Below are positions 3,536-62,741 of a DNA stretch of 64,000 bases, one piece after another. Both the position numbers and the translations under genes were made by a program. Position 1 is the first letter of the stretch. The number at the start of each line of letters is the position of its first letter. The notes beneath the pieces are model-generated. The model had not been told where the DNA came from, searched no databases, and saw only the letters and a list, made by a program, of their open reading frames with translations. Source of the DNA: Patescibacteria group bacterium (GTDB lineage: Bacteria; Patescibacteriota; Patescibacteriia; UBA1558; GWA2-36-10); the NCBI GenBank assembly GCA_041665545.1, contig JBAYIQ010000001.1:67495-131494 (forward strand). The letters run 5' to 3'.

Positions 3536-5215
3536 TTATTCCTCAGTTTTTTCTAATTTTACACCAAACCAGCCGAGTTTATTTTCTAGTTTTTTATTAA
3601 CCACCAAACGCATAATGGTGTGAGTCACAGTAAGAGCGGAAAACATGGATACCAAAATACCAATACCCAAAGTTATAGCAAAACCTTTGATAATCGAAGT
3701 GCCAAACCAAGCCAGAATCACACAAGTGATAATTGACGAAAAGTTTGAATCTCTAATTGATGGCCAAGCTCTCTCAAATCCATCTTCAATGGCTGTAACT
3801 AAATTTTTGCCATTGTAAAGCTCTTCTTTGGTGCGCTCAAATATCAAAACATTGGCATCAACGGCCATACCAATAGATAGAATAAAACCAGCAATACCGG
3901 CCATAGTCATAGTCACTGGTATTAATTCAAATATTGATAAACTGACTACGGTATAGATACCCAAAGCAATGACAGCCAAGAAACCCGGCAAGCGATAAAA
4001 CAGCAACATAAACAAAGCGGCGGCCAAGAAACCAATAATGCCAGCCAACAAACTCTGGGTCAAAGAAATCTTACCTAAAGTCGGTCCAATAGTCTGTTGG
4101 GTGAGCAAGCTAATCGGCACTGGTAAAGCACCCAAGTTCAAATCTTTGACTAATTGCTTGGCTTCGGCAATAGTAAACTTGCCAGAGATCTGAGCTGAAC
4201 CATCTTTGATGGCTTCTTGAACTACTGGACTGGAGCGCAATGATCCATCCAAAAATATACCAATTGGTTTTCCAACATTAGCTTCAGTCAAAGAGGCAAA
4301 AACAGTTGTGCCTTCTTCATCAAAATCAAGTAAAACCATTGGATCTTGGGTATTGGGGTCAAATTGTAGTTGCGCTTTTTTTATATTTTTACCACCCAAG
4401 GTAGTATCCAGCCAATTATTATTCAAATCAGCGTTTGCTTTGGCAAATAAAATATGCGCGGCATGCACTTCTAGTACACCATCAACTGTAGTGCGCTCCT
4501 CTATTTTTTTTATAATATGATAGCCAAACTGAGATTCCACTAATTGCTTACTGATTTGTCCGGATTTTAAATCTTCAAAAATAGCTTTGTCAAACTCGGG
4601 TACAAAAGTATCTTTTTTGGCCCAGCCCAAATCACCGCCAGCGTCTTTTGAGCCCGGATCTTCGCTGAATTCTTTGGCTAGCTTGGCAAAATCCTCATTT
4701 TTTAGGGCGCGCTTCAAGACTTCTTCGGCTTTCAAACGAGTAGCGTCATTATCAGTTGAACTTGTATCTGCTCCTTGAGTTTTGAATTCTAATAGCGGTG
4801 TCTTATCAATGATTTTTATAGCTTCATTGACATCAGTAACGCCGGCTAATTCTACAATAATACGATAATTTTCTCCACTGTAGTTGGTCTGGACCAGTGG
4901 CTCAGAAACACCGTAGGCATTGACCCGTCTTTCAATGACGTCCCGTAGGGCTTCCACACGGTCACGACGCTCGCTATTAGGCACGTTGGTAACATCGGCC
5001 TGATAAACAAGATGGGTGCCACCCTGTAAATCAAGACCCAGATGCATTTTGACCTTATTTACCCAATGATCTTTGGGTAAAAAAGACACATTTGGCAGAA
5101 CAAAAAGTATAGCCATTATTGTCAAAATAGCTATAAATATCCCTGTCCATCTGAGCCGATTTTTGCTAATAAGCTTGTGTTGCTGTGGATAACTATATTT
5201 ATTCATAATTTCCAA
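3536..5215 (-). CDS. secD: Protein translocase subunit SecD
   Basis: 559 aa, N-terminal TM, large periplasmic domain, C-terminal 5 TM. Precedes secF. Confidence 0.85.
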   Translation of the reverse strand: MEIMNKYSYPQQHKLISKNRLRWTGIFIAILTIMAILFVLPNVSFLPKDHWVNKVKMHLGLDLQGGTHLVYQADVTNVPNSERRDRVEALRDVIERRVNAYGVSEPLVQTNYSGENYRIIVELAGVTDVNEAIKIIDKTPLLEFKTQGADTSSTDNDATRLKAEEVLKRALKNEDFAKLAKEFSEDPGSKDAGGDLGWAKKDTFVPEFDKAIFEDLKSGQISKQLVESQFGYHIIKKIEERTTVDGVLEVHAAHILFAKANADLNNNWLDTTLGGKNIKKAQLQFDPNTQDPMVLLDFDEEGTTVFASLTEANVGKPIGIFLDGSLRSSPVVQEAIKDGSAQISGKFTIAEAKQLVKDLNLGALPVPISLLTQQTIGPTLGKISLTQSLLAGIIGFLAAALFMLLFYRLPGFLAVIALGIYTVVSLSIFELIPVTMTMAGIAGFILSIGMAVDANVLIFERTKEELYNGKNLVTAIEDGFERAWPSIRDSNFSSIITCVILAWFGTSIIKGFAITLGIGILVSMFSALTVTHTIMRLVVNKKLENKLGWFGVKLEKTEE

Positions 5216-5382: not shown

Positions 5383-5799
5383 TTACTTATAGACGCCATA
5401 AAGCGTCAAAAGAAAGACGAGTAAGAATTGACAGGAATGGATAATGATTCTTGCCCTCTTACTGACATTGGGATCAGTGGCCATGCCAATAACTAAAACG
5501 ACAATAAGGGCAATGACCAAAACAAAGTCAAGAAAGAGATTAAAAAAAATTGATATGGGCCTGCCGACGTTGATAGCAAACGCGGTAAAAGCAGTCATAC
5601 CGGTAGCGAGGACAAGAGCAAAAAAAGCAACGAAGGACTCATTTTTGTCGACGCCAAAAATGCAACAGGCGATCACAGCGGTTGCAACCACAGCAATGAG
5701 GGCGAAGCCGTTATTATTCGTAAGGCCCAGGACAACAAAAAACGCCACCAAAGCCGTGATTGTGGTGACCAGTTGCTGCACGATCATCTTCTTCATCAC
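5383..5799 (-). CDS. Small polytopic membrane protein, unknown function
   Basis: 138 aa, about 4 hydrophobic helices. The overlapping plus-strand ORF is rich in R/K and looks like a frame artefact. Confidence 0.5.
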   Translation of the reverse strand: MMKKMIVQQLVTTITALVAFFVVLGLTNNNGFALIAVVATAVIACCIFGVDKNESFVAFFALVLATGMTAFTAFAINVGRPISIFFNLFLDFVLVIALIVVLVIGMATDPNVSKRARIIIHSCQFLLVFLLTLYGVYK

Positions 5800-5967
5800 A
5801 ATCTCCTTTCATGTCATGGAACAAAACTAATGGGCTGAAATGCCCAATTTTTAGTTTTCAAGTTACCCTATAATAATCTACCAATTCTGTCAATATCTAA
5901 AATAAAAATTTCAGATAAAAAACACTCAAATGAGTTTGAGTGTTTTTTATTATAAAATAATATTAAA

Positions 5968-8073
5968 TTATTTTTTTTCTGATTCAGCAGTGGCTAGATC
6001 AAAAGTTTTTTGCTCTTCCCAGCTCTTTTCATCATAAACCTTGATTTCATTCTCACCAATTATATAGAAAGAGTCGTTGACAAAGATAGCGCGTTTGACT
6101 TGAGTCATTTGAGCGGCCTTGACCAAAGATAATTTATCATTGTCATAGCTCAACACATATCCGCCTTTACTACCCGGTATAAAGAAAACTTTATACTTTT
6201 GGTCCATCATAAAAGCTCGAGAATTACTATTGACTTCAGTATAATATTCATCTAAAGAATATTTATATAATTCTTTTGGATCAGAAGCATTGGAAACATC
6301 AAACAAAGAAATTTTTACTTTGTTGGCTTCCTCACCAACACCAATAATTCTATCTTTATTTATGGGATGCAAATAGGAAGAATAGCCGGGTATTTTCAAC
6401 TCGCCTTTTTTAATTGGATTCTTGGCATCACTCAAATCAATCACATAAAATGGATCCGTCTGCCTAAAAGTCACTATGTAAGCTTTGTCTTCAATAAATC
6501 TGGCGCTGTATATGCGTTCAGTCAAACCCATGTCTAATAATTTACCAACGATTTTGAGATCATCACCCAACACATACAGATCATTGGCGCTTTCACCGTT
6601 GCTACCAAAAGACGAATCCCACATACCGCCCAAAGTAGTAGCGATTCTCAAATTGCCTTTGTATTCGTCTAGCGACCATTGATTTAGTGGCGAACCAGGA
6701 ATACCACCGCTAGCTTTGACCTTCAAATTGTCGATGCCAATTTTTACAATTCCCGTATTAGCTAAATTTCTTTTATTATTTTTATAATAATTTTGAAAAC
6801 GATTTTGTAATTCAGTTTGCACTCGAAGTTGTTCGTCTTTACCCAAACTTTTTTGCCAATTCTCAATGATAATCTGTAGCTCCATCATCTTGGTGTAATT
6901 ACTCAAATCATAAGATTTTAGTTTGTTCACTTTTTCTTGAACACTAGCAGTCAGTAGATCAGTCGCCTCTTTATTAATAAAATCCGAATAAAAAGTGAAC
7001 ATATCAATTGACTGCGGATAAGTAATATACAAATTATCCGTTGACATATAGACCACTGATTGCCCCGCACTGGCCACAAAAGAAGTAGTGTCACCTACTT
7101 TACCAGACTTGATGTCAATCTTCATGGCCACATAAGTTGAATCAGCCGGGATTGGAGAAACTGGATGATAAATATCATTGCAAGCAATGCTAAGTTTTTC
7201 GTCATTATAAGTCAGTGGCTGAATAGGGCAGGGCTCAGTCCCATTGATATAAGTGTGGGTCACTAAATAAATATTATCATTATACAATCTGGCCTGATCA
7301 AATACTGTTTGGGAGTTGGAATCTAGCTTGATGGTCCACTTTTTTTCTGGTTTGGCTCGATTGCTAATATCATAGCCATTTATTTCATTACCAGAAAATA
7401 CCACCAACATATTATCTTTGACCAATAACTCGCCCGCCTTATCAATCTGGGATAATAATTTCATGTCAGTCAATGGCCAAGATTTAATAATATCGGTTTC
7501 AGCTGTTACTTGTTGTTGGGGATAATAGCTATCCACTGGAACTGGGACCATCATTCTCTCATAAGCATAATAATTTCCTTGCTTGGCATAGAAAATATTT
7601 TGACCATCAGTCTTTAAAACATCGGGCTCATCAATACCAGCCACTTGCACATTGGTTTCAGAAAATCTTTCGGCGTTAGCTGATCCGCTTCCACTAGGCG
7701 TGGTCTTGATGCTATCCTCCGCCATCATCGGAGCGTTCACCATAACATCTCTTGAAATAGTATTCATGCCACCATAGTAATCGGAGCTAGCCAGCAGCTG
7801 ACCTTGTGTGAGATAATCTTTGAATTCATCGACTGATTTGAATTTAGCCACTTCAGTACTAAAATCATAGTTACTTGTACCGTTGTTATTATTAATTGGT
7901 GGCAGTTTTTTCTGGCGATCATTAATATTGTTAGCTAATAAAAGCAAGCCGACCCCAATAACCAACAAAAATAAAACAATCACTAAAGATGCTTTCATGT
8001 TTCCGTAGTGATTAAGAATATTGTTGATTAATTTTTTTTGTTTTTTAGAATTTTTCTTTTTGTCTATTTTCAT
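5968..8073 (-). CDS. Secreted or membrane-anchored beta-propeller domain protein (Beta_propel-like)
   Basis: 701 aa with an N-terminal Lys-rich signal anchor. The C-terminal half has repeated strand-rich segments typical of a beta-propeller. Confidence 0.5.
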   Translation of the reverse strand: MKIDKKKNSKKQKKLINNILNHYGNMKASLVIVLFLLVIGVGLLLLANNINDRQKKLPPINNNNGTSNYDFSTEVAKFKSVDEFKDYLTQGQLLASSDYYGGMNTISRDVMVNAPMMAEDSIKTTPSGSGSANAERFSETNVQVAGIDEPDVLKTDGQNIFYAKQGNYYAYERMMVPVPVDSYYPQQQVTAETDIIKSWPLTDMKLLSQIDKAGELLVKDNMLVVFSGNEINGYDISNRAKPEKKWTIKLDSNSQTVFDQARLYNDNIYLVTHTYINGTEPCPIQPLTYNDEKLSIACNDIYHPVSPIPADSTYVAMKIDIKSGKVGDTTSFVASAGQSVVYMSTDNLYITYPQSIDMFTFYSDFINKEATDLLTASVQEKVNKLKSYDLSNYTKMMELQIIIENWQKSLGKDEQLRVQTELQNRFQNYYKNNKRNLANTGIVKIGIDNLKVKASGGIPGSPLNQWSLDEYKGNLRIATTLGGMWDSSFGSNGESANDLYVLGDDLKIVGKLLDMGLTERIYSARFIEDKAYIVTFRQTDPFYVIDLSDAKNPIKKGELKIPGYSSYLHPINKDRIIGVGEEANKVKISLFDVSNASDPKELYKYSLDEYYTEVNSNSRAFMMDQKYKVFFIPGSKGGYVLSYDNDKLSLVKAAQMTQVKRAIFVNDSFYIIGENEIKVYDEKSWEEQKTFDLATAESEKK

Positions 8074-8114: not shown

Positions 8115-8816
8115 CTAGCCACCGCCAAACCTTCTTTGGCGATTACTGAACTCCAACAAAGCTTCATCAAAATCATCTTTGGTAAATTCTGGCCACATTT
8201 TTTTGACAAAATATAATTCGCTGTAGACTGATTGCCAAGTCAAAAAGCCAGACAGTCTTTGTTCGCCTGATGTTCTAATAATAAAATCTGGGTCAGGCAA
8301 ATTACTGGTGTATAAATTTTTACTAAACAACTCTTCAGTAATTTCTGACGCTGGTATTTTATTTTTAATTATATTTTTTACAGCATTGATAATTTCATCA
8401 CGACCACCATAATTAACGCATAGATTCAAAATGCCTTTTTTGACTTCAGTGGTTTTTTCTTCGGAATTAGCTATGGCTCTTTGCAAATCAGTGCTAAATC
8501 TAGTCTTGTCACCTAATATTTGTAATTTAATCCCCTTTTCAGCTAAATTATTTGTTTCTTTATCTAAAAAAGTACTGAACAATTTAAATAAATAATTTAC
8601 TTCCTCCTCACTGCGCTTCCAGTTTTCCGTAGAAAAAGCAAAAATAGTCAAAATTTTGACGCCTTTGGCCAAAGCATATTCAGCAATTTCTTTTACCTTA
8701 TCAGAACCAACTCTGTGCCCTTCTAAGGTGGGTAAATTATGCGCTTTGGCCCAACGCCTATTGCCATCAATTATAATTCCGATGTGATTCGGCACTATTA
8801 TATCTTTTGAATTCAT
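8115..8816 (-). CDS. uppS: Undecaprenyl-diphosphate synthase (isoprenyl transferase)
   Basis: IIDGNRRWA and RTSGEQRLSGFLTWQ motifs. Start placed at the internal ATG (MNSKDII) rather than the longer ORF. Confidence 0.85.
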   Translation of the reverse strand: MNSKDIIVPNHIGIIIDGNRRWAKAHNLPTLEGHRVGSDKVKEIAEYALAKGVKILTIFAFSTENWKRSEEEVNYLFKLFSTFLDKETNNLAEKGIKLQILGDKTRFSTDLQRAIANSEEKTTEVKKGILNLCVNYGGRDEIINAVKNIIKNKIPASEITEELFSKNLYTSNLPDPDFIIRTSGEQRLSGFLTWQSVYSELYFVKKMWPEFTKDDFDEALLEFSNRQRRFGGG

Positions 8817-8857
8817 TTTTTTATTATAGCAATATAAAATCTGCTTGAAAAGGGTGC

Positions 8858-8899
8858 TAAAAAAATAAAGCCCCCCCCTCAAGCTCTGCTTAAGGGGGG
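8858..8899 (-). terminator. Intrinsic terminator (7-8 bp C/G stem plus a long T-run on the minus strand)
   Basis: CCCCCCCC-13 nt-GGGGGG hairpin followed by TTTATTTTTTT on the minus strand. It sits just after the stop of the 8912-9208 gene. Confidence 0.6.
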
Positions 8900-8911
8900 T
8901 AATGGCCAGCA

Positions 8912-9208
8912 TCAACGCACTTTGTGTTTGAACCAACGGGCGAGGCGTTTCTTTTCAAGAATAAAAAAACGCAATGGTATCAATTGTGCCCGATGAGAAC
9001 GCGTTTGGGCATCACACCAGATACGTTTCCAGGCAAGCTGGTCATCTGTTTCCAAAACAAAACCTGCTGTCTGTAGGGCAACGGTAGCTTCTTGCTCGTT
9101 CTTGAATGGTCCAAAGATGACACCACTGCGATCACCTTCATAACTATGACGAATTTCTACCTCTAGTATTTCACTAGAGCCACATCCTACAAGCACAAAA
9201 CACTGCAT
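8912..9208 (-). CDS. GC-rich small hypothetical protein (98 aa) with a basic C-terminal tail
   Basis: AGGAGG RBS 7 nt upstream of ATG CAG TGT. GC content is far above that of its neighbours. It has its own promoter and terminator. Confidence 0.55.
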   Translation of the reverse strand: MQCFVLVGCGSSEILEVEIRHSYEGDRSGVIFGPFKNEQEATVALQTAGFVLETDDQLAWKRIWCDAQTRSHRAQLIPLRFFILEKKRLARWFKHKVR

Positions 9209-14257: not shown

Positions 14258-14300
14258 TATAATTATAGATAATTTTTGTATATTAAATCTAAAAATGTTT

Positions 14301-14319
14301 TGGCTGCCGGATAGGGACT
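14301..14319 (-). pseudogene. tRNA-Gln 3'-end fragment (acceptor/T-arm remnant) plus duplicated downstream flank
   Basis: TGGCTGCCGGATAGGGACT matches the 3' end of the tRNA at 14600-14673. The preceding flank TATATTAAATCTAAAAATGTTT resembles that tRNA's own flank. Confidence 0.5.
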
Positions 14320-14507
14320 TCCGCGTCGCTCACCCATTAATTTTAATAAGTTGTTCGCTCCTTGTCCTGGGCAGCGCTCAAAGCTACGCCAGCTCACTTT
14401 GAGCGACGCTCGATTTATTCGCTACGCTCATATCTCGCTTCTGCCCGTTCGAGTCCCTTTCATGTATTTAATAACTGGGAAAAAATTTAAATTTATTTCA
14501 CATGACT

Positions 14508-14550
14508 TGGCTGCCGGATAGGGACTCGAACCCCAATTACCAGGGCCAGC
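14508..14550 (-). pseudogene. tRNA-Gln 3'-half fragment (about 43 nt, anticodon-stem 3' strand through CCA)
   Basis: Aligns to the full tRNA at 14600-14673 from the CCA back to GGGCCAG, then diverges. There is no 5' half. Confidence 0.55.
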
Positions 14551-14599
14551 CTGCCCCGCTCGCCGAGCACTAAACGCTTATATTAAATTAAAAAAATAT

Positions 14600-14673
14600 T
14601 GGCTGCCGGACAGGGAGTCGAACCCCGATTACTAGGGCCAGAACCTAGCGTCCTACCATTAGACGATCCGGCA
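14600..14673 (-). tRNA. tRNA-Gln (anticodon CTG)
   Basis: Reverse complement folds as a canonical cloverleaf: acceptor TGCCGGA/TCCGGCA, D-loop AATGGTA, anticodon loop TTCTGGC, T-loop TTCGACT, encoded CCA. Confidence 0.8.
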
Positions 14674-14698
14674 ATAATTAAATTAGTTTTTTAAAAAA

Positions 14699-14758
14699 CA
14701 ACGGTGACTCGCGAGGCGGGCCGGGGAACCTAGCGTCCTACCATTAGACGATCCCCGA
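14699..14758 (-). pseudogene. tRNA 5'-half fragment (first 32 nt) fused to an unrelated GC-rich tail ending in a T-run
   Basis: Reverse complement reads TCGGGGATCGTCTAATGGTAGGACGCTAGGTT. This matches the acceptor of the Gln(TTG) tRNA and the D and anticodon stems of Gln(CTG). It is followed by CCCCGGCCCGCCTCGCGAGTCACCGTTGTTTTTT. Confidence 0.5.
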
Positions 14759-14917
14759 ACAAATAAAAACTGGCTTTTTATTTTAAACTATTTACAACTT
14801 TAGACATAAATTATACAAGGTACGACTTGCCCGCCAAAACTCCGAAGGAGTGACGGCGGGTCCCCGAATGGCTATAAATAACTAAAAAATAATATAATAA
14901 TTCTGTTGCTTAGTCAA

Positions 14918-34563: not shown

Positions 34564-35029
34564 TGTCTAAATAACCCTGTAAGCCGAATTCTGTCGAGGA
34601 TGATCATCTATCTAGGCCCATGATTGCTCATGGGCTCAAGCGGTTTACCCGCCCCTTGATTTCTCTCAGGGCCTATTTAACCTTTCACCGAGTAGAGTTT
34701 ACCTCTTTTGCTTTGTCACCAAAGTAACGTGTCAGCTCATTATCTGACAATTTCACCCTTACCCATTTGACTCAGCCTTGCGGCTTCGCTCAGGGAGGAA
34801 TATTTTCTGTTGTACTTGTCTTGACTCTTGAGTCACCTCTCAAGCCAGTTGACGTTATCAACTACCCGCCCCGCAAGCGGAGCCATTGGTGTTCGGACTT
34901 TCCTCCCTGAACCACTCACTCCGTTCGGGTATCAGGGCCGAAGCCCTTTTACATTATTACGGCGTGAGCCGTGTACCCGAGCAAAGCGAGTGGTTCACGG
35001 CGATCATCTGGGTTATTTAGACGATTATT
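34564..35029 (-). ncRNA. rnpB: RNase P RNA, bacterial type A
   Basis: On the minus strand: GGGAGGAAAGTCCGAACAC (P4 5' strand), ACAGAAAATA, GGGTAAGGGTGAAA, ACAGAATTCGGCTTACAGGG (P4 3' strand), and a P1 helix CGTCTAAATAACCC/GGGTTATTTAGACA. Confidence 0.85.
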
Positions 35030-35082
35030 ATAATACAATAAAATTAACTATTTGTCAACAATAAAATCCGCCTTAAATACGC

Positions 35083-49058: not shown

Positions 49059-49126
49059 ATAAAGTAAACCAAAATGGCTAATTCCAGCCACTGGTAAGTA
49101 CTCTAAACATTCCCTAGGAGGTCGTG

Positions 49127-49801: not shown

Positions 49802-49836
49802 GAAGCCCGTTGCACACGCGACGGGCTTTTTCTTTA
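49802..49836 (+). terminator. Intrinsic terminator (8-bp stem AAGCCCGT/ACGGGCTT plus T-run)
   Basis: Seen directly in the sequence. Confidence 0.65.
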
Positions 49837-53525: not shown

Positions 53526-54667
53526 GTTTTTGTTGCTATATTTTTCATCTCACCTTCTGGGGCAATCAAAACGCGACAGCCCTTTGGTAAATTTAAATTT
53601 TTTAAAACTAAACTGCGAATTACCGCCGAGTTGGTACCTACCACGCCAGTAAACACAATGGCTTGCGGTTTCTTACTCATACCCAAATACGAAGCTAAAT
53701 AGCGCTTGATATCATAAACATAAACAGCCAAAGCTTGCTTGGCTAATTTTTTCTGAATACTTGAATATTTGAAACTTGACTTGTAGCCACTGACTTTGTA
53801 GCCCGAAGCCAGCAATACTTCTCGTAAATCAGCGCTACCACTCAAGCCCAAGAGCCCTGACTCTTGATTGATTAACTGGTCAATTTGCTCTAAAGGCATT
53901 TTTTGTTCTTTGGCTAGATACAAGGCCACGGCCGCTGGCAAATCACCGCTACGAGTCGCCATAGTCAAACCCTCATTGGGTGAAAAACCCATGGTAGTGT
54001 CTTTGACCTTGCCCGCTTCCAGCCAAGCAATGCTTGATCCCGATCCCAGATGAATAGTAATGGCTGATAATTTATTCCAAGCTATATTCAATTTTTTGGC
54101 AGCCCAAGAACAAGCCATCTCATGACTAAGCCCGTGAAAACCATATTTTCTAATGCCAAACTTTTCGTAATATTTTATGGGCAAAGAATATAAATAAGCT
54201 TCTGGCTCAAGCCCTGAAAACCAAGCTGTGTCAAAACTGGCAATTATTTTGACTTTGGGCCAAGTAGCTTGCACTATTTTTACCAACTCCAAACTTTGTT
54301 CGTTGTGTAATGGCGCCAAGTGATTGTACTGGCTTATTTTTTGTAAAATATTTTTATCCAGCTTACAGCTTTTCTTAAACTCCGCGCCACCGTGAACCAC
54401 TCGCAAGCCAACAGCTTGAATGTCCAATTTGGCCAGCATTTCATGAATAGCTTGCCAAGCGTTTTTCAAACTGTATTTTTCCGAATAATTAACTTGATTT
54501 TTTTTATTATTTTTATAATAAAGCAAAATTGACTTGGCATTGTAAGCAGAATATGAGCCCTCCAAAATTATTCGGCCTAAAACTTTTTTGTCATACTCAA
54601 AAACAGCAAATTTCAAACTACTGGAGCCGTTGTTCAAAATGAGTAAATTTTTTTTCTCATTTTTCAT
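53504..54667 (-). CDS. ackA: Acetate kinase
   Basis: N-terminal LILNNGSSSLKF (acetate kinase signature 1), VVHGG and HLGSGSSIA motifs. Confidence 0.75.
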   Translation of the reverse strand: MKNEKKNLLILNNGSSSLKFAVFEYDKKVLGRIILEGSYSAYNAKSILLYYKNNKKNQVNYSEKYSLKNAWQAIHEMLAKLDIQAVGLRVVHGGAEFKKSCKLDKNILQKISQYNHLAPLHNEQSLELVKIVQATWPKVKIIASFDTAWFSGLEPEAYLYSLPIKYYEKFGIRKYGFHGLSHEMACSWAAKKLNIAWNKLSAITIHLGSGSSIAWLEAGKVKDTTMGFSPNEGLTMATRSGDLPAAVALYLAKEQKMPLEQIDQLINQESGLLGLSGSADLREVLLASGYKVSGYKSSFKYSSIQKKLAKQALAVYVYDIKRYLASYLGMSKKPQAIVFTGVVGTNSAVIRSLVLKNLNLPKGCRVLIAPEGEMKNIATKTWQYLHQ

Positions 54668-55256
54668 AAATATATACTTTTTGCTTATTAACTAAACCCA
54701 CGGCATTAGCTTCATCAGTATCAAGATGAACATGGGTTTTGAAGTCTCCGACTCTAACCACTACATTCTCCAAAATAGCTGATCGCTCTCCCTTGACCAT
54801 GATGGCTATTTTTTTACCACTTTTGTATTTCCATTCTTTGGCCTGTTTTTTGGAAATATGCAAATGACGCTGAGCCACAATGGCCGCTGCTACGACATGA
54901 CCATGTGGCCCCTGCAAAGTGACTTGGCTAGATTTGCGTACTTGTCCAGAAAGCTGAACGACTGGCTTGATGCCCAAAAAATAGCAATCAGTCATTGACA
55001 GTTCCACTTGGGTTTTGCGTCGCACCGGACCCACAATCCTCACTTTGGGAAAATAATCACGCCCACCCTTAACCACCAGTGTTTCTTTGGCCGCAAATTC
55101 TTCGGGCTGTGACAAATCTTTAAATTTTGATAATTTAAAATTTTTACCAAATAATTTTTCCAAATCTTTTTGGTTCAAGTGGATATGTCGCGCTGATACT
55201 TCGGCTATGATTGTTTTCACCCCGTTAGAAATTTTCTTTTCTTTTTTGCTGTGCAT
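54657..55256 (-). CDS. pduL: PduL-type phosphate acyltransferase (phosphotransacetylase)
   Basis: About 200 aa with two PduL repeats (VSARHIHL ... AQRHLHI). Confidence 0.7.
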   Translation of the reverse strand: MHSKKEKKISNGVKTIIAEVSARHIHLNQKDLEKLFGKNFKLSKFKDLSQPEEFAAKETLVVKGGRDYFPKVRIVGPVRRKTQVELSMTDCYFLGIKPVVQLSGQVRKSSQVTLQGPHGHVVAAAIVAQRHLHISKKQAKEWKYKSGKKIAIMVKGERSAILENVVVRVGDFKTHVHLDTDEANAVGLVNKQKVYIYEK

Positions 55257-55337: not shown

Positions 55338-55440
55338 CTTTTGCTCGTCATTCTGGAGCGAACGCAGTGAGCGATAGAATCCACAAAATGTAGACTCTAT
55401 CGCTTCGTCCCGCCACACGGGACTACGCTCCAGAGTGACA
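55338..55440. repeat. Palindromic element, copy C (TIR GTCATTCTGGAGCG/CGCTCCAGAGTGAC; internal GCGATAGAATC/GACTCTATCGC)
   Basis: Seen in the sequence. Shares the GTCATTC terminus and GATAGAATC core with copies A and B. Confidence 0.5.
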
Positions 55441-55444
55441 AAAA

Positions 55445-56422
55445 TTATAATTTATACTTTTTCAAATCACCAGCTTGCAATAAGCCGGTTTGAGCGCCTA
55501 TTTTTGATACTACGGCGGCGCTATTATATGTACCCAAGGCCAAAGCTTTTTTTATATCCCTATATTTTATCCAGCCGGCCACAAAACCAGCACCAAAAGA
55601 ATCTCCCGCGCCAGTAGTGTTCAATGCTTTTACTTTTTTGACTGGCCGAAAATGTAATTCTTGACCATCAAAAGCATAAGAGCCCTTTTGGCCATCGGTA
55701 ATCACGGTAATTTTTTGTCCAAATTTATGTAAATTCTTAATCAAGTCACGAATATTATTTTTTACTTGATGTTTGACTAATATTTCCAAGGCCTCATCAC
55801 GATTGACAATCAAAACATGAGTTTTTGATAAATAATCCTTCAACCTGCTAGCTGGTAGCTGTAACTGCTGAACTCCGGGATTCCAAGCCAGCTTTATTTT
55901 CTTTCTAGCAACATGATGAAATAAAATGTCTGGTTGTTTGGTGTAACTTTTTGGCAGAGAGGCCAAATAAATCCAAGGCGTGTTGATTTTATTTACTTTT
56001 TCAGCACTAAGATCAACATAATCATTGGCTCCCCGATAAGCAAAAATAACATGTTCATTGTCTTGCCCCACATTAGCCACAAAAGACAGGCCGGTCTTGT
56101 GCTTGTGATCAAATTGCACAAGCTTGGTGCTGACTTTTTTTGCCTTAATATTAGCCAAAATATCTTTACCTAAAAAGTCCGAACCCAGACGACAGACAAT
56201 TTGCGCTTTCAAACCAAGATTGGCAAATGACACAGCCACATTGGCCGCGCTACCACCATTGACCAGATATACTTTGTCGCTATAAATTTTGGCGCCGTAT
56301 TCAAAGGCCACTAATTTTTGCCTCAACAAGTCTTGTCGATTATCCAAAAACAAAACATTGTCAGCGTAAAACATAATGTCATACACGGCGCTGCCAATGG
56401 CTGTAATGTGATTGCCTAACAT
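55445..56422 (-). CDS. PfkB-family carbohydrate kinase (ribokinase-like)
   Basis: N-terminal GG motif and C-terminal TGAGDSFGAGFVAG signature. Confidence 0.8.
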   Translation of the reverse strand: MLGNHITAIGSAVYDIMFYADNVLFLDNRQDLLRQKLVAFEYGAKIYSDKVYLVNGGSAANVAVSFANLGLKAQIVCRLGSDFLGKDILANIKAKKVSTKLVQFDHKHKTGLSFVANVGQDNEHVIFAYRGANDYVDLSAEKVNKINTPWIYLASLPKSYTKQPDILFHHVARKKIKLAWNPGVQQLQLPASRLKDYLSKTHVLIVNRDEALEILVKHQVKNNIRDLIKNLHKFGQKITVITDGQKGSYAFDGQELHFRPVKKVKALNTTGAGDSFGAGFVAGWIKYRDIKKALALGTYNSAAVVSKIGAQTGLLQAGDLKKYKL

Positions 56423-56469: not shown

Positions 56470-56952
56470 TTATTTGTATTGTCTAATATAATACCCAGCT
56501 ACTCCCATGGCCACACCAACATTGAGCGATTCTTTTTGGCCGTACATTGGCAAATAAATTATTTGGTCGGTCTTTTTTAGTAATGCCTTTGATACTCCAC
56601 GCACTTCATTGCCAAGCAACAGTGCTAAAGGAAATTGCGGTTTGAATTTATTATATGGTATGGCACCAGCCCCCAGTTCTAAACCAATTATTTTTACCTT
56701 TTGTTTTTTGAGTTTGATAAATAAACTAGAAATATTTTTGTGATGCTCCCAAAGCACGAAATTCTCTGACCCCAAAGCTATTTTTGATATTTGAGAAGAT
56801 GGCGGATGACCAGAATAGCTGGTCAAATAAATTTTGTCCACACCCAAAGCATCAGCGGTACGAAATATAGTACCAATATTGTATAAACTTCTGATATTGT
56901 GGGCTATTATATAAAAATCGTGATTGGCTGAAAAAGACCTATTTTTATTCAT
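56470..56952 (-). CDS. SpoU/TrmH-family RNA 2'-O-methyltransferase
   Basis: SPOUT motifs (NIGTIFRTADALG, LLGNEVRGVS). Start placed at the internal ATG (MNKNRS). Confidence 0.75.
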   Translation of the reverse strand: MNKNRSFSANHDFYIIAHNIRSLYNIGTIFRTADALGVDKIYLTSYSGHPPSSQISKIALGSENFVLWEHHKNISSLFIKLKKQKVKIIGLELGAGAIPYNKFKPQFPLALLLGNEVRGVSKALLKKTDQIIYLPMYGQKESLNVGVAMGVAGYYIRQYK

Positions 56953-56975
56953 ATCTTGACAGTTTAGTCTTGCTA

Positions 56976-57187
56976 TTGACAAAAAATTTTATATGTGCTA
57001 CTATGTTACTGTTTTTGTTCGTCCAACTACTAGCCATGCTCGCAAGCTTACGGGGTACAGCTTACGAGATTCACCGTGCGCGTCTCCCCAGCGACAGTTA
57101 TATATGTCGCCTAAGCAAGACGCAAATATTAACTTTACTTCACACGCGGCGGGGTTTGTCTCACAAGAGCGCCCCGCCTTTTCATTT
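56976..57187 (+). ncRNA. Candidate GC-rich structured sRNA unit of about 175 nt (TTGACA-17-TACTAT promoter, transcript about 57011-57187, intrinsic terminator GGCGGGG/CCCCGCC plus T-run)
   Basis: Promoter and terminator are both oriented on the plus strand. No RBS-led ORF. Extensive hairpins (CTCGCAAGCT/AGCTTACGAG; GCGTCT...AGACGC). About 52% GC between AT-rich minus-strand genes. Confidence 0.35.
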
Positions 57188-57197
57188 ACATAAATTT

Positions 57198-58823
57198 TTA
57201 TTTGTCGTCATGATAAACTTCTTCCTTTTTCTCTTTCATGAAACCCAGCCAATCCTCAAAAGCCAAGACTATCATCTTAAATGGCGCCTCAATAATAAAA
57301 TCCATGACAAAAGCAAAAATATTTATCTTGCGGAATTTGGTAGACAGCCAACGGCCAACGCCCACAATCGGTAAAGAGAAAAAATTCATTAGGAATGACA
57401 AAACATCTTCTTTGTTATCAATCACTTTGAGCTCTTTGGCGGTACTACGAATACGAATAGCAAAAAAACTAACTGCTGTCAAAAAGAACAAAAATATAGC
57501 GCCGCTAATTATATTAAAATTTAACTTACGCAAGAGGTAAATAATTCCCCCAAAAACAGCGATGTACAACAAGGTGTACATAAAATTATAAAAAATCTGA
57601 TAACTCAACGACTGTTTGTATTTTGACTTGAGCTGACACAAAATTGATCGCTCGGATTTACCATAGACCAAATCTTTCAAGTTGGCCAAAATTTTATCAG
57701 TATTGTTGGTTCCAGGCACAGAAAAAGACAAAGTAACCAAAAACATCAGCAAAGGTGGAAACACTATATTGATTCCTAAATTAAGCATGTTGATGTGCCC
57801 CAAAACATATCTTTCATAAGGAAACTCCAAAGCAACAGCAAACAACACTTTAGTAATAAAAATATAAATAATGGCCCGCATGGAACTCTTGCTGAGCTTA
57901 CTGCGAATAGATTTGTAACGCTCAATAATCAGTTTTCTGGCTTCGGCTTCCAGCTCCTCTGGCTGGACCAATAAATCCTCTATTTTGGTCTCGTGACGCA
58001 ATATTAATTCGTGCAAAACCTGAAAAGTAACGACCGGCTCTTTGATGGCTTGTGATATACGGCGTTGATAAGGGTGGCGCAAATGACGCTGGATAGTGCG
58101 ATAGATAGGGCCTATATTAGTGGCTATTTCTGTGATTAATTTTTGATCGGCTCCAAGCCAATCTGGATAATACAAATTCAGTAGATGATAAGAAATTATT
58201 GTTACGTCAGATTTGACTAAGGATTTGTGGATAGTAATATAAAGTTGAATATTTTTTTCTCTAATACTCAAATCGTCACCTTTTAGCTTGACGCGCGGTT
58301 TGGTCACTTCATACATGGCCTCAATCACCGCATCAGCAATATCTTCCGGAGTCAGAATAATATCGATTTCACAGGCCTCAATGCCAATCAGCCAATCAAA
58401 ATAATCCTGCAAATTCTTTTGCTCCAGTTTATCATTTTCATAATGCTCGTTGAGCTGAGCAAACAAATCATTGTACTTGGCAATGACTTGCTCTACTTCC
58501 TGAACTTTTGATTCTGGAATACCATTGTTGGGTATGTATTGTCCTCTAACCAAATCCTCAATTAGACTCCTGGCAATCTGGGGTTTTAAAATTTCCAAAA
58601 TAAAACGGCGCTTTAGATTGCGCTCGATAGCATAACGCCTCAATAAATGAACTTCTTTAAAATCAACGCTGTTTCTCAGCTTTTCATAAAGCGAAGACAA
58701 GTGGCTGGCCATTTCTTCAACTGAGATGACATTTTTGTTTTCATCTTGGGCAAAAGCCTCGCGCTGGCGATAAATACGCTCAACTCTTTTAAAAAGGAGT
58801 ACTACTTCTGATGATATTTTCAT
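57198..58823 (-). CDS. Hypothetical membrane protein (541 aa; soluble N-terminal half, C-terminal multi-TM)
   Basis: ORF. Last minus-strand gene before the strand switch. Confidence 0.55.
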   Translation of the reverse strand: MKISSEVVLLFKRVERIYRQREAFAQDENKNVISVEEMASHLSSLYEKLRNSVDFKEVHLLRRYAIERNLKRRFILEILKPQIARSLIEDLVRGQYIPNNGIPESKVQEVEQVIAKYNDLFAQLNEHYENDKLEQKNLQDYFDWLIGIEACEIDIILTPEDIADAVIEAMYEVTKPRVKLKGDDLSIREKNIQLYITIHKSLVKSDVTIISYHLLNLYYPDWLGADQKLITEIATNIGPIYRTIQRHLRHPYQRRISQAIKEPVVTFQVLHELILRHETKIEDLLVQPEELEAEARKLIIERYKSIRSKLSKSSMRAIIYIFITKVLFAVALEFPYERYVLGHINMLNLGINIVFPPLLMFLVTLSFSVPGTNNTDKILANLKDLVYGKSERSILCQLKSKYKQSLSYQIFYNFMYTLLYIAVFGGIIYLLRKLNFNIISGAIFLFFLTAVSFFAIRIRSTAKELKVIDNKEDVLSFLMNFFSLPIVGVGRWLSTKFRKINIFAFVMDFIIEAPFKMIVLAFEDWLGFMKEKKEEVYHDDK

Positions 58824-58914
58824 ATATTAAATCTGCTATAAAAATACCATAAATTGGCTTTTTGTTCAATAATAGTTTATAATATTTTTGTAAATACATA
58901 CCTATAATACATCT

Positions 58915-59679
58915 ATGCTGTTGAATATTATTATCGCCTCTTTATTGGTCAGCCTTCTTTCGCTAGTGGGTTTAGCTGTTTTTTCCAAAAATCGCTATAG
59001 CCACAAAATAATGGACGGGGCTATAGCGCTGGCTGCTGGTGTGCTTTTGGGCAATGTTTTTTTTCATATGTTGCCGGAAATCATGAAAATGCAGGTAGAA
59101 AACAACTATGACCCGCAACAAATTTCCTTGTGGATATTGGGGATCATAATTTTTTTATTTTTTACCGAACAATATTTGCACTGGCATCATTGCCACCGCC
59201 ACCACTGCGACGACCAGCACGAGCACACTGACCCGGCTGGCGTAAATATCTTGCTTGGCGATGGAATACACAACCTAGTAGATGGCATGGTAATCGCCGC
59301 TAGCTTTGCCGTTGATAATTCGGTGGGCTGGATGGCAACTTTGGCTATTGCTTTGCATGAAATACCGCAAGAGATTGGTGATTTTAGTCTACTTTTACAT
59401 TCTGGCTTTTCCAAGGCCAAAGCTTTATTTTGGAATTTTATATCTGGATTACTGGCTATTGTCGGCGCTGTGGCTACTTATTTTTATGCCCGAGTTGCTG
59501 AGCACGAAATTATTTTAATATCTTTGGCGGCCGGCAGTTTTTTATACATTGCCATGTCTGATATTATGCCACACCTCCAAGAGCAGAAAAGAGTCAATCA
59601 ATTTACACAAATTTTGTGGTTTATAATTGGACTGGCTTTAATATTTATGGCCAATAAATTTTTTAATTTTGAAGCTTAA
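58915..59679 (+). CDS. zupT: ZIP-family metal transporter (ZupT-like)
   Basis: HNLVDGMVIAASF and HEIPQEIGDF motifs. His-rich loop HWHHCHRHHCDDQHEH. Confidence 0.8.
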   Translation: MLLNIIIASLLVSLLSLVGLAVFSKNRYSHKIMDGAIALAAGVLLGNVFFHMLPEIMKMQVENNYDPQQISLWILGIIIFLFFTEQYLHWHHCHRHHCDDQHEHTDPAGVNILLGDGIHNLVDGMVIAASFAVDNSVGWMATLAIALHEIPQEIGDFSLLLHSGFSKAKALFWNFISGLLAIVGAVATYFYARVAEHEIILISLAAGSFLYIAMSDIMPHLQEQKRVNQFTQILWFIIGLALIFMANKFFNFEA

Positions 59680-59704: not shown

Positions 59705-59733
59705 TTGACAGAAATTTGATTATATGCTATACT
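59705..59733 (+). promoter_or_regulatory. Sigma70-like promoter (TTGACA-17-TATACT) driving leader elements A and B and the receiver gene
   Basis: TTGACAgaaatttgattatatgcTATACT. Confidence 0.45.
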
Positions 59734-59761
59734 CTTTTCATTGACAATTTAACAAACCTTT

Positions 59762-59866
59762 GAAGCAAGGAAGCATTATCTTTATTTGGACGCTTGGATA
59801 ATGTGGAGCTAGTAGCGTAACCGGCAACAATTTTTGGTTACGCTTCCTAATGGGAAGTGTTTTTTG
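59762..59866 (+). promoter_or_regulatory. Structured RNA leader A (riboswitch-like) ending in an intrinsic terminator
   Basis: Conserved blocks GAAGCAAGGA / TTTGGACGCTTGG / GGAGCTAGTAGCGTAACCGGCA. Alternative 8-bp hairpin GCGTAACC/GGTTACGC. Terminator CTTCC..GGAAG plus TTTTTT. Confidence 0.45.
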
Positions 59867-59900
59867 TTGAATGTACCTTTAAAAAATCACACAATCAATC

Positions 59901-60051
59901 GATGAGGCAAGGAATGATCGTCTGTATTTGGACGCTTGGTCCTCCCACTCCGCCATCTGGCGGATATGGACGGACGAGGACGATCAGGAGCTAGTAGCGT
60001 AACCGGCAATTTTTTTGGTTATTAGCTAAACACCTCATTCAGGTGTTTTTT
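59901..60051 (+). promoter_or_regulatory. Structured RNA leader B (paralog of A with an extended internal stem) ending in an intrinsic terminator
   Basis: Same three conserved blocks. 62-nt insertion forming CCGCCAUCUGGCGG and GGUCCUC/GAGGACG stems. Terminator CACCTcattcAGGTG plus TTTTTT, directly before the receiver gene RBS. Confidence 0.45.
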
Positions 60052-60083
60052 GTTACCTGGTGGCTAGCAAGGAGGAAAAGAAC

Positions 60084-60461
60084 ATGAGCACGATTTTTGT
60101 CTTGGACCAGAAGGAATCTGCCGAATCCCTGGCCATGGCACTCTGTCAGGAAGGACACGTGACTTACATAAGTTGCGACTACAAAAAGGCCTTAAGACAG
60201 ATCGCTGAACTGACCGCCGCCAAAGCAGGGCCAGATCTAGTGTTGGCTGAATTTCTGGAAACAGACGGGGCAGAACTTTGCAGGGAACTGCGGCGATACG
60301 GTCTGACCAGGAAAATCAAGGTTGTACTGATGAGTCGCGGTGGTCCGCACAGCAATATTGATTATTACCGCCGACTGGGAAAAAGCTACGGAGCAGATGA
60401 CTACTTACTCAAGTCAGACGACCTGCGAGCAATCGCTCGAAGCATCCAACACTTGATCTAG
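60084..60461 (+). CDS. Stand-alone receiver (REC) domain protein with the phospho-acceptor Asp replaced by Glu (pseudo-receiver)
   Basis: AAGGAGG RBS with an 8-nt spacer. CheY-like fold sequence: IFVLDQ, DLVLAEF (E at the phospho-site), conserved K in KVVLMS..., GADDYLLK. About 50% GC. Confidence 0.6.
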   Translation: MSTIFVLDQKESAESLAMALCQEGHVTYISCDYKKALRQIAELTAAKAGPDLVLAEFLETDGAELCRELRRYGLTRKIKVVLMSRGGPHSNIDYYRRLGKSYGADDYLLKSDDLRAIARSIQHLI

Positions 60462-60640: not shown

Positions 60641-60700
60641 TGATTTTCCGACTTGATTGTGCTACATTAAAAATATATAGAATATTCACAATTTAAATAA

Positions 60701-60824
60701 AGTGAGGCAATGACTGATTACTATCCATTTTGGACGCCAAATTGGTAATCAAGAGCTAGTGGCGTAACCGGCACTTTTATCAACTAAGCCACCCACCTCA
60801 CCAAACATTAATTGAGGTTTTTTT
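60701..60824 (+). promoter_or_regulatory. Structured RNA element C (third paralog of A and B) with an intrinsic terminator
   Basis: GAGGCAATGA / TTTGGACGCC / AGAGCTAGTGGCGTAACCGGCA blocks. Terminator CCTCA..TGAGG plus TTTTTTT. Confidence 0.45.
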
Positions 60825-61103: not shown

Positions 61104-62174
61104 ATGAGATTCGTAAGCGTTCTGCTACTGGTTGTGGCTTCCTCGGCGCTTCTGCTGGGTGGCTGCGAACAGAGCCCCACCACTCCGGTGGAAAACCTCA
61201 GCCCCGGACAGGAGCACAATGTCTTCCTGTCTACCATGTATGCCAACTACGGCATCGAGCAGTACCACAATGTCGATACCGAACTGGCTATCAATCGTGC
61301 CAGCAAGGTGTTCGCCAAGCAGCTGAACCTGCCCGAAGCCGAAGTGCGACAGCAGATGGAGCAAGGAATCCGGGTCTTCAACGACCTGGAAGCTGCTGGG
61401 ATCATCGATTTCGACCATTTCAAGATCATCGATCCGTCGGGGTTTGCTGAATACATCAGCAACCTCGACCCCGCCACCACCCCCGAAGAACGGCGGATGG
61501 TTCGAGACTTGATCGGCGATCTTGTCGCCACTGGCGCCGACAAGTCCCGAAGCTACGACCAGGTGGTGGCCAAATGGAACCACCACTCCGTCACCCAGCG
61601 GCTCACCAGCTGCCTGGACGTACTGGCGGCCAGTGATGAGTTCTGGACGACGCCCGACGCAGACAAGAAGCAACCCTATACCGCTGGCGAGGTCCAGATG
61701 TGGGATACCGGCGGAGCTCTGGCGGGAGCTTGGCTCGGTGGTCCCCTCGGAAGCCTGCTCGTAGGAGGGCTCACCTCTTATCTGGCAGCCGAATACTGCT
61801 CGCTCTGCCCGCCGGACGAACCGCCGCCGCCACCGCCGCCCCCGCCGCCGCCACCGCCGTCACCGAACGGTTATGATCCGCCGCCCGTCGTCCTGTCCGG
61901 TTTCATCTCTTTTCCTCCTCGCCACCCCGCTGGCTGGGCGGTGGTGGTCATGCTGATCGTCTGTGTCACGGCCTGGCTGATATTGCACAAGCGATATCAG
62001 CTTGGTAAGTTCTGGGGTTTGGGCATGATCATGCTGATCGGCTCCTTGTCCCAGATCGCCGCCAGCAGCATCAGCCACACCAACAACAGCATGTCGATCT
62101 TGCTGTTGGTGATTTCCAGCGTGATCGGAATCTGGCTCATTCGTCGCAACACCCAACGGCGAGTGTTGAACTAG
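61104..62174 (+). CDS. GC-rich lipoprotein with a poly-proline linker and C-terminal TM helices
   Basis: AGGAGG RBS. Signal peptide with lipobox LLGGC. PPDEPPPPPPPPPPPPPSP tract. Two or three C-terminal hydrophobic helices. About 58% GC. Confidence 0.6.
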   Translation: MRFVSVLLLVVASSALLLGGCEQSPTTPVENLSPGQEHNVFLSTMYANYGIEQYHNVDTELAINRASKVFAKQLNLPEAEVRQQMEQGIRVFNDLEAAGIIDFDHFKIIDPSGFAEYISNLDPATTPEERRMVRDLIGDLVATGADKSRSYDQVVAKWNHHSVTQRLTSCLDVLAASDEFWTTPDADKKQPYTAGEVQMWDTGGALAGAWLGGPLGSLLVGGLTSYLAAEYCSLCPPDEPPPPPPPPPPPPPSPNGYDPPPVVLSGFISFPPRHPAGWAVVVMLIVCVTAWLILHKRYQLGKFWGLGMIMLIGSLSQIAASSISHTNNSMSILLLVISSVIGIWLIRRNTQRRVLN

Positions 62175-62199: not shown

Positions 62200-62247
62200 G
62201 GACCCCGCATCTGTTGCATTCACAATGCACTGCGGGGTCCTCTTTTT
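62200..62247 (+). terminator. Intrinsic terminator (9-bp stem GGACCCCGC/GCGGGGTCC plus TCTTTTT)
   Basis: Seen directly. Confidence 0.65.
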
Positions 62248-62410
62248 ATTGACTAAATGCTAAATATATACTATAATTTTTTTGTTTTTTATATTTATTC
62301 GGGGACCCGTCCGCCTCGGCTACGCCGCAGGCGTGCCGGGCGAGTCTACTATTCATAAGGACATAGTCATATATAAAACAAGTAGTATAATTTACATTAT
62401 TTTTAAACAT

Positions 62411-62484
62411 TCGGGGATCGTCTAATGGTAGGACAGCGGCCTTTGAAGCCGTGAATTGGGGTTCGAATCCCTGTCCCCGAGCCA
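62411..62484 (+). tRNA. tRNA-Gln (anticodon TTG)
   Basis: Cloverleaf: acceptor TCGGGGA/TCCCCGA, D-loop AATGGTA, anticodon loop CTTTGAA, T-loop TTCGAAT, CCA encoded. Confidence 0.8.
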
Positions 62485-62741
62485 CTCGACTCGTCGTCGT
62501 TTCACTCCGCCTCGCTCGTGATTTCAGCTCCTCACTTCGTTCGTTGTTTCAACCCTTCATATAAAAAAGACGAGGTGAGTGTCCCGAGCGTAGTCGAGGG
62601 ACAAAACAATTTTTTATGAAGTATACCTAAGATGCTGCGCAATAGCGCAGCGCCCCGAGCCAGCCTTCGCCAAGGCTACGGCTGGCTTACAGCCATAAAA
62701 TATACCACAAAATTTAAAAATTAATTAAAAAATAAAATTAT

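Follow-up and report, generated by a model that had tools for sequence, protein, structure and literature searches.

The window, that is, the whole stretch of 64,000 nucleotides analysed here, is part of a metagenomic contig of 295 kb (JGI 3300037810, Ga0376277_0000288) and has a GC content of 38.6%. Its proteins have homologues annotated under Candidatus Komeilibacteria, Parcubacteria or Patescibacteria and, up to ~58.8 kb, almost every gene is on the minus strand. Two of these minus-strand genes, encoding a SpoU/TrmH-family methylase and a 541-aa membrane protein, enclose the segment of interest (Table 1), as had been proposed in an earlier note made from the sequence. The 541-aa protein is a well conserved multi-pass membrane protein with many invariant residues and appears restricted to Patescibacteria (342 database matches at E<=0.001 among 8,000 candidates scored; 531 tblastn-confirmed stretches in GTDB species genomes). 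In the Komeilibacteria-like clade, SpoU is usually translationally coupled to the gene of this protein. At ~58800-59000, gene orientation changes from almost all minus to plus and the cumulative GC skew reaches its minimum (~58-59 kb); this switch could mark the origin or the terminus of replication, or simply a divergent promoter region.

Table 1. Features of the SpoU/541-aa junction and of the DNA inserted in it (window coordinates).
Feature	Position	Strand	Basis or description
SpoU/TrmH-family methylase gene	56470-56952	-	Pfam SpoU_methylase, E 7e-33
Left, diverged junction copy TATTTTTATTCAT (on +)	56940-56952	-	10/13 match to right copy
Insertion, 246 bp, 43% GC overall	56953-57198		homology break against relatives' loci
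Second TTGACA box, upstream	56956-56961	+	sequence reading
Sigma-70-type promoter TTGACA-17-TGcTACTAT	56976-57004	+	promoter scan
Predicted non-coding transcript, ~175 nt	57011-57186	+	ends deduced from promoter and terminator
Hairpin module P4	57039-57068	both	+ 9 bp with C-A mismatch; - 10 bp + 3 bp
Module P2/P3	57075-57146	both	closing stem 57075-79/57142-46
Intrinsic terminator, GGCGGGG/CCCCGCC hairpin + TTTT	57148-57182	+	fold -18.2 to -19.6 kcal/mol
541-aa membrane-protein gene	57198-58823	-	without Pfam domain
Right, original junction copy TATTTGTCGTCAT (on +)	57199-57211	-	last codons of 541-aa gene

The junction was compared with 80 loci around homologues of the 541-aa protein in species-representative genomes, together with the contigs carrying its closest homologue (97% amino acid identity); L-numbers designate these collected loci and contigs. 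Of the 29 species loci retaining both genes, 27 show SpoU and the 541-aa gene overlapping or abutting, and the spacer does not exceed 60 nt in the remaining two. Overlap or abutment was likewise observed in L002, L004, L006, L007 and the contigs carrying P0001, the closest homologue. The overlapping junction of the relatives, ATGACGACAAATAG, is present in a single copy. There, the 541-aa gene ends with ...CAT GAC GAC AAA TAG and the ATG of SpoU is embedded in this end (ATGACGACAAATAGG..., giving MTTNR...). The 246-bp insert was missing from all 29 related species loci as well as from the closest contigs. Nucleotide identity to the nearest relatives amounts to ~85-91% in both flanks and is interrupted at ~56919 and ~57197, a break that was seen against L002, L004, L006, L007, L082 and L084. 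The state without insert is clearly ancestral. None of the related genomes examined has the unit, the flanking genes overlapping there, and it is therefore an accessory insertion and not a core gene; it appears specific to one uncultured Komeilibacteria-like species. An assembly artefact or chimera is contradicted by a separate Logan assembly (SRR18595301, here L088) that is 100% identical over 2,510 nt, although the sample behind this run may be the same one or a sister of it.

The insert is bordered by a 13-bp direct repeat whose copies are identical at 10 of 13 positions, a level reached by 2.3% of shuffles. The right copy corresponds to the original junction, and the adjoining T57198 completes the TAA stop codon of the 541-aa gene (57198-57200). 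The left copy is in frame at the start of SpoU, to which it now gives the start codon (CAT = ATG, 56950-56952) and codons 2-5 (MNKNR...). All three mismatches are GC-to-AT changes in this left copy, which was freed from encoding HDDK. Besides a duplication produced by the insertion event, the repeat could equally be one kept by selection, preserving both genes intact. The insert-type N-terminus was found in none of the close SpoU homologues, all of which start with MTT..., i.e. at the overlapping start.

The insertion also altered the expression signals of SpoU. In the relatives, the end of the 541-aa gene includes its Shine-Dalgarno sequence (GAGG); here this sequence stayed with the 541-aa copy, so that the new ATG of SpoU has no Shine-Dalgarno sequence and translational coupling to the 541-aa gene is lost. 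The promoter scan detected no sigma-70-like site on the minus strand inside the insert and, being without a recognisable promoter of its own, SpoU must rely on read-through from the 541-aa gene.

Other insertions and deletions were recorded around these genes, the locus being an indel hot spot among close relatives. Between SpoU and pfkB, L002 carries an extra AT-rich gene for a 171-aa membrane protein (5585-6100), and an extra stretch of ~580-600 nt occupies the same place in L006 and L007. An internal deletion in L003 (~3925-4010) has taken almost all of SpoU. Finally, the P0001 contigs (L082-L084, 996-1391) display a FUR-family gene between a ZIP transporter gene and the 541-aa gene; it is absent from both the window and L002.

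A self-contained unit with its own promoter and terminator had been claimed for this segment, and the sequence signals bear this out. The promoter, read earlier as TTGACA-17-TACTAT, is composed of a -35 box TTGACA (56976-56981), a 17-nt spacer and a -10 box TACTAT (56999-57004), with an extended -10 TG at 56996-56997. Its score of 10/12 was the joint-best in the 2 kb scanned, and it was the only one of ten sites to display the TG. Perfect sites of the TTGACA-17-TAnnnT type number eight in the 128 kb formed by both strands of the whole window, six of them, including that of the insert, being intergenic. Four of the other intergenic sites stand upstream of evident units (the RNase P RNA, site at 35058; a c-di-GMP-II cassette, site at 59705; and genes at 49124 and 61104), and the fifth (9281) occurs in the spacer upstream of ORF 8115-8936.

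The terminator had likewise been recognised, with its plus-strand orientation. Its stem is formed by GGCGGGG (57148-57154) and CCCCGCC (57172-57178) and is directly followed by TTTT (57179-57182). The hairpin is slightly more stable on the plus strand, which is also the only one with a U-run. Only five hairpin and T-run sites at or below -16 kcal/mol were found on the plus strand, three of which end plus-strand genes. In strength, the terminator of the insert equals the hairpins ending plus-strand genes at 49805, 62199 and 63944. A simple terminator scan missed it only through its long, partly paired loop.

The unit between these two signals has a GC content of 51-53%, well above that of the window and similar to the RNase P RNA (49%) and tRNAs (58-59%) of the same genome. 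The foreign cassettes of the window (up to position 60776 at least), to which its composition had been likened, are common to relative L002, whereas the insert is not. Two hairpin modules precede the terminator. Module P4 is made of CTCGCAAGCT (57039-57048) pairing with AGCTTACGAG (57059-57068). The 10-bp stem announced by the earlier note is present in full only on the minus strand, where it includes a G-U pair; nine pairs and one internal C-A mismatch (C57043/A57064) are formed on the plus strand. The energy of P4 is -10.7 kcal/mol (z -2.5) for the plus strand versus -14.6 kcal/mol (z -5.0) for the minus strand. Module P2/P3 contains, inside its closing stem, pairs between 57080-86 and 57117-23 and between 57091-96 and 57105-10. 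The nested motif described before, in which GCGTCT (57080-85)/AGACGC (57118-23) encloses GCGAC (57091-95)/GTCGC (57107-11), was retrieved in this module. On the plus strand, one internal loop of this module is C-rich (UCCCCA, 57084-57090), and 57124-57141 form a single strand rich in A and U. Here again, the energies differ between strands (-17.6 kcal/mol, z -2.9, on plus; -27.9 kcal/mol, z -3.5, on minus).

Three GC-rich hairpin modules are found in a unit that had been called highly structured over ~175 nt, and each of them, on either strand, is more stable than its own shuffled versions (z -2.5 to -5.0). This description does not extend to the plus-strand body as a whole which, taken without the terminator, is not clearly above chance (z -1.74; 14 of 200 shuffles equally stable). 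On the minus strand, the body reaches z -2.70 and the entire insert z -3.5, the latter with none of 200 shuffles as stable. Over the same 178 nt, the fold energy is -64.6 kcal/mol on the minus strand versus -51.3 kcal/mol on the plus strand, G-U pairs on the former taking the place of C-A mismatches on the latter, both in P4 and terminally in P2 and P3. With body hairpins predicted to fold better on the minus strand, the functional strand is ambiguous. The models hint that, if structure was selected at all, its carrier may be the operon mRNA or the DNA.

Coding capacity was examined on both strands. As the earlier note had stated, the unit contains no Shine-Dalgarno-led ORF. A 66-aa ORF on the plus strand starts inside the promoter spacer and a 134-aa ORF runs through the terminator. 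The only hydrophobic start is an ATG at 57003, which lies inside the -10 box, has no Shine-Dalgarno sequence and reads through the terminator. A protein search with the 66-aa ORF among 1.84 billion representatives gave a spurious repeat-protein match only, and a 68-aa minus-strand open frame yielded neither homologue nor candidates. A conserved ORF, named earlier as the observation that would speak against an RNA unit, was looked for in these protein searches and was found on neither strand. A type I toxin-antitoxin system was rejected, the unit having no short hydrophobic ORF with a ribosome-binding site.

Searches for relatives of the insert were equally negative. The Rfam comparison suggested in the earlier note (6S, tmRNA, SRP and others) was run with cmscan on both strands of 56900-57260; none of the 4227 families matched, even at E<=10, and none at gathering thresholds. 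ARAGORN reported no tmRNA. With nhmmer and blastn, the insert matched only itself in the window and the 80 related loci, an nhmmer match at 62237-62442 (E 0.057) being dismissed as a likeness limited to promoter and AT-rich sequence. BLAST in 'distant' mode gave no match in phages and plasmids, and five exact-match pattern scans of viral contigs returned one chance match, inside a phage coding region. A stem-anchored exact pattern scan of metagenome contigs, of limited sensitivity and in a collection without the source contig, produced eight chance matches (six in high-GC contigs and two in contigs of ~40-44% GC), none of them homologous by nhmmer. Likewise, a single-sequence covariance model of the minus-strand core, run over the related loci (762 kb) and over 41 kb more from its own contig, recovered nothing but itself. 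No second copy was present in the ~84 kb of the source genome that were covered, which include 10 kb on either side of the window, or in the related loci (~760 kb). The only other known copy, that of L088, is 100% identical, leaving no homologue for covariation.

The best explanation, which we put forward tentatively and without calling it probable, is that the insert is an acquired, stand-alone orphan sRNA gene antisense to the operon. That the unit is at least transcribed appears, from its signals, more secure than that it is a functional sRNA gene. A promoter and an intrinsic terminator are correctly oriented round a non-coding body, which is the arrangement of signals taken to mark an independent sRNA. 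From site densities, the chance of finding a promoter of the class used for real units in this genome, a GC-rich ORF-less body and a strong terminator in this order within 246 bp was roughly estimated at ~1e-5 to 1e-4. Because such a combination is improbable in random DNA, a real transcription unit of ~175 nt is favoured.

The insertion of 246 bp split the ancestrally overlapping SpoU/541-aa junction and duplicated 13 bp of it. In the scenario proposed from there, the sigma-70 promoter with its extended -10 would fire at ~57011, against the operon, and yield an RNA of ~175 nt that has a single-stranded 5' tail and contains two hairpin modules besides an A/U-rich linker. Transcription would halt at GGCGGGG/CCCCGCC and UUUU, just short of the 3' end of the 541-aa gene. 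Since SpoU needs read-through from the 541-aa gene, this sRNA would be perfectly complementary to the new intercistronic mRNA. Its promoter would moreover be convergent, facing operon transcription head-on, and the unit may act by cis-antisense pairing combined with transcriptional interference on SpoU and the downstream pfkB, PTAC and ackA genes. We infer that this is the likeliest and most economical mode of action. The UCCCCA loop and the A/U-rich linker may also serve as seeds in trans. A duplexfold comparison with the 54 translation-initiation regions of the window, a crude method, gave none above shuffles, and a trans target is possible but unsupported. We know of no chaperone context for sRNAs in Patescibacteria.

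Cis-encoded antisense RNAs and transcriptional interference from convergent promoters are established general mechanisms. The insert resembles them in that its promoter is directed against a co-directional gene pair and that the predicted RNA would be able to pair over its full length with the read-through mRNA between the two genes. Classical antisense RNAs overlap a long-standing coding region or 5' UTR, whereas here the insertion itself would have made the complementary mRNA segment. A second likeness is to stand-alone sRNA genes carried on horizontally acquired DNA, for example the sRNAs of mobile genetic elements presented in one preprint (bioRxiv 10.64898/2026.05.13.724894). The shared features are an intergenic position, a sigma-70 promoter of their own, a structured non-coding body of ~100-200 nt, an intrinsic terminator, a patchy lineage-specific distribution and a base composition unlike that of the host. 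In contrast to such acquired sRNA genes, the insert has no visible surrounding prophage, island or IS and no homologues. On the evidence of its sequence, the unit would be an unrelated addition to such lineage-specific acquired units of the sRNA type.

A serious, though in our view unlikely, alternative would make the insert a functionless leftover of mobile or foreign DNA: a cassette in decay, a MITE-like element in single copy, or filler taken up at a break. The host would tolerate it, SpoU being dispensable. Its occurrence in one species only, in a locus rich in other indels, would fit such an origin, as would a GC content well above the genome average, the resemblance of the 13-bp imperfect repeat to a target-site duplication and fold statistics that are only moderate. 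The promoter and terminator could have arrived with the foreign scrap. Yet a random scrap is unlikely to contain, within 246 bp, a promoter close to the consensus, a body that does not code and a strong terminator, all correctly ordered and oriented, and nothing alike was met in the searches of phages, plasmids, viral contigs and metagenome contigs described above. The comparison with prokaryotic MITEs and similar small repeats (e.g. Correia, MITEAba12 and SPRITE) is the closest one on this side. These elements are 50-500 bp long and have no transposase, as is the case for the insert, and they further share with it a flanking direct repeat, an internal sigma-70 promoter and insertion at gene boundaries. 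MITEs with internal promoters, often of the sigma-70 type, occur, and so do single-copy families (PMC10969869). Among the characters that define MITEs, the insert nevertheless displays size and flanking repeat only. Terminal inverted repeats were not found (aligned locally with each other, the two ends scored 7 at best, a value reached by 156 of 500 shuffles), further copies are lacking in the part of the same genome and the related loci covered, and the 13-bp duplication is longer than most.

An improbable reading assigns the function to the minus strand. The insert would then be an intercistronic element of the 541-aa/SpoU mRNA, acting in processing, stability or as a leader of SpoU, and the plus-strand signals would be incidental. 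This would agree with the better folding of the minus strand reported above, including the perfect 10+3-bp hairpin that P4 forms there alone, and with a position inside a co-directional gene pair, a different and very stable element being found in the next-but-one spacer of the operon (55345-55440). However, a G-rich strand always folds better, and the terminator hairpin departs from this strand preference, both in stability and in its U-run. Furthermore, no Rfam cis-regulatory family matched, the SpoU ATG has no Shine-Dalgarno sequence for a leader to mask or unmask, and the consensus promoter is left unexplained.

Still more doubtful is the capture of a riboswitch or attenuator leader that left its gene behind, an orphan that may act as a ligand-responsive sRNA. 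The succession of promoter, structured leader and terminator is the layout of the c-di-GMP-II cassettes located 2.5 kb away, and the unit ends exactly at its terminator, beside the insertion boundary. Against this stand the lack of any Rfam aptamer family at E<=10, by which the known riboswitches were rejected, and of a homologue showing a conserved ligand pocket. Inspection of the sequence revealed no convincing anti-terminator (just 4 bp, CCCC/GGGG). Nor does a plus-strand ORF follow, the next plus-strand sequence being antisense to the 541-aa gene. Listeria SreA and SreB are riboswitch-derived trans-acting sRNAs, in which a promoter, a structured element and a terminator likewise lead to the release of a short RNA; the insert differs from them by having no recognisable aptamer and no downstream gene.

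We regard as very improbable, and mention only as speculation, that the insert represents a self-contained mobile 'sRNA mini-cassette', a kind of element undescribed in Patescibacteria. Promoter, RNA and terminator would travel together in such a cassette, which would generate a target duplication of ~13 bp without terminal inverted repeats and would rewire operons by placing an antisense unit between coupled genes.

Finally, a divergent housekeeping RNA (6S-like, SRP or tmRNA) or a gene for a small protein or toxin is hardly credible: the ~175 nt and the GC-richness recall 6S RNA and the region is spanned by open frames 66 to 134 codons long, but the absence of the unit from all relatives effectively refutes this, Rfam and ARAGORN were negative, no rod-and-bubble fold was predicted and the ORFs have neither Shine-Dalgarno sequences nor homologues. 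The 6S-like identity suggested in the earlier note was abandoned on these grounds. 6S RNA compares with the insert in length (~175-185 nt) and in being GC-rich relative to the genome, but is conserved across related genomes and forms a long irregular duplex, closed by its paired 5' and 3' ends, with a large central bubble. In the MFE and centroid folds of the insert, the terminator hairpin stands by itself at the 3' end, and separate local hairpins make up the body.

Several further classes were considered and set aside. SRP RNA, tmRNA and RNase P RNA were rejected for want of a model match, for their different fold and because the relatives lack the unit; the RNase P RNA is encoded elsewhere in the window (34564-34951). 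SRP helix 8 was dropped as there is no GNRA loop and no conservation in relatives, a retron msr/msd as there is no reverse transcriptase gene, and an IS200/IS605-type PATE as the two end hairpins are unrelated. Integron attC sites and a casposon-like insertion were dismissed for lack of repeats or inverted ends. A group I intron or a tRNA was dropped, the insert being too short and giving no Rfam or ARAGORN signal. A REP-like palindrome was also rejected, since z is -2.5 and -3.0 here versus ~-8 for either strand of the element located 1.7 kb away (55345-55440), with which the insert shares no similarity at the level of sequence or covariance model.

To our knowledge, the regulatory RNAs of Patescibacteria (CPR), organisms of tiny genome in which few regulators have been recognised, have hardly been described. 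Were the proposed antisense sRNA gene expressed, it would provide a natural example of sRNA gene birth, in which one insertion creates an antisense RNA together with its target and, in the same event, breaks the translational coupling of two genes. Its present value is mainly that of a well-delimited candidate, known as a singleton, and of a correction to its reading as a 6S-like core RNA.

Additional structured or repeated elements were encountered in the window. The spacer between pfkB (55445-56422) and PTAC (54657-55256) contains a very stable, GC-rich three-way-junction or palindromic element (55345-55440; -58 kcal/mol on the minus and -52.6 kcal/mol on the plus strand, z ~-8 on both). Elements at homologous positions occur in L002 (7170-7275) and L006 (7688-7830), with a different closing stem (GTCATTGCGAG/CTCGCAATGAC) and a shared GACGAAGCRAT core. 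L004 has no spacer at this place, and L007 displays there a run of 100 N that is probably an ordinary scaffold gap. GTCATTGCGAG was also found elsewhere, in L012, L036 and L047. The element looks like a fast-evolving repeat or structured element.

Both tRNA-Gln genes (regions 14258-14917 and 62250-62700) are located amid partial tRNA-Gln copies separated by GC-rich filler. TTGGCTGCCGGATAGGGACT occurs three times near 14.3-14.6 kb; in the second region, a 5' fragment of tRNA-Gln lies at ~62299 and the 3'-end repeat CCCCGAGCCA at ~62650. These partial copies look like footprints of repeated integration or excision at tRNA-Gln. As for the c-di-GMP-II riboswitch, the Rfam-scored copy (59752-59835) is accompanied by two look-alikes sharing GGACGC...GAGCTAGTRGCGTAACCGGCA, one at ~59900-60020 (with an inserted hairpin) and the other at ~60700-60780. 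Copies of this type precede GC-rich genes, encoding a response-regulator-like protein (60060-60461) and a proline-rich membrane protein (61104-62174, 59% GC).
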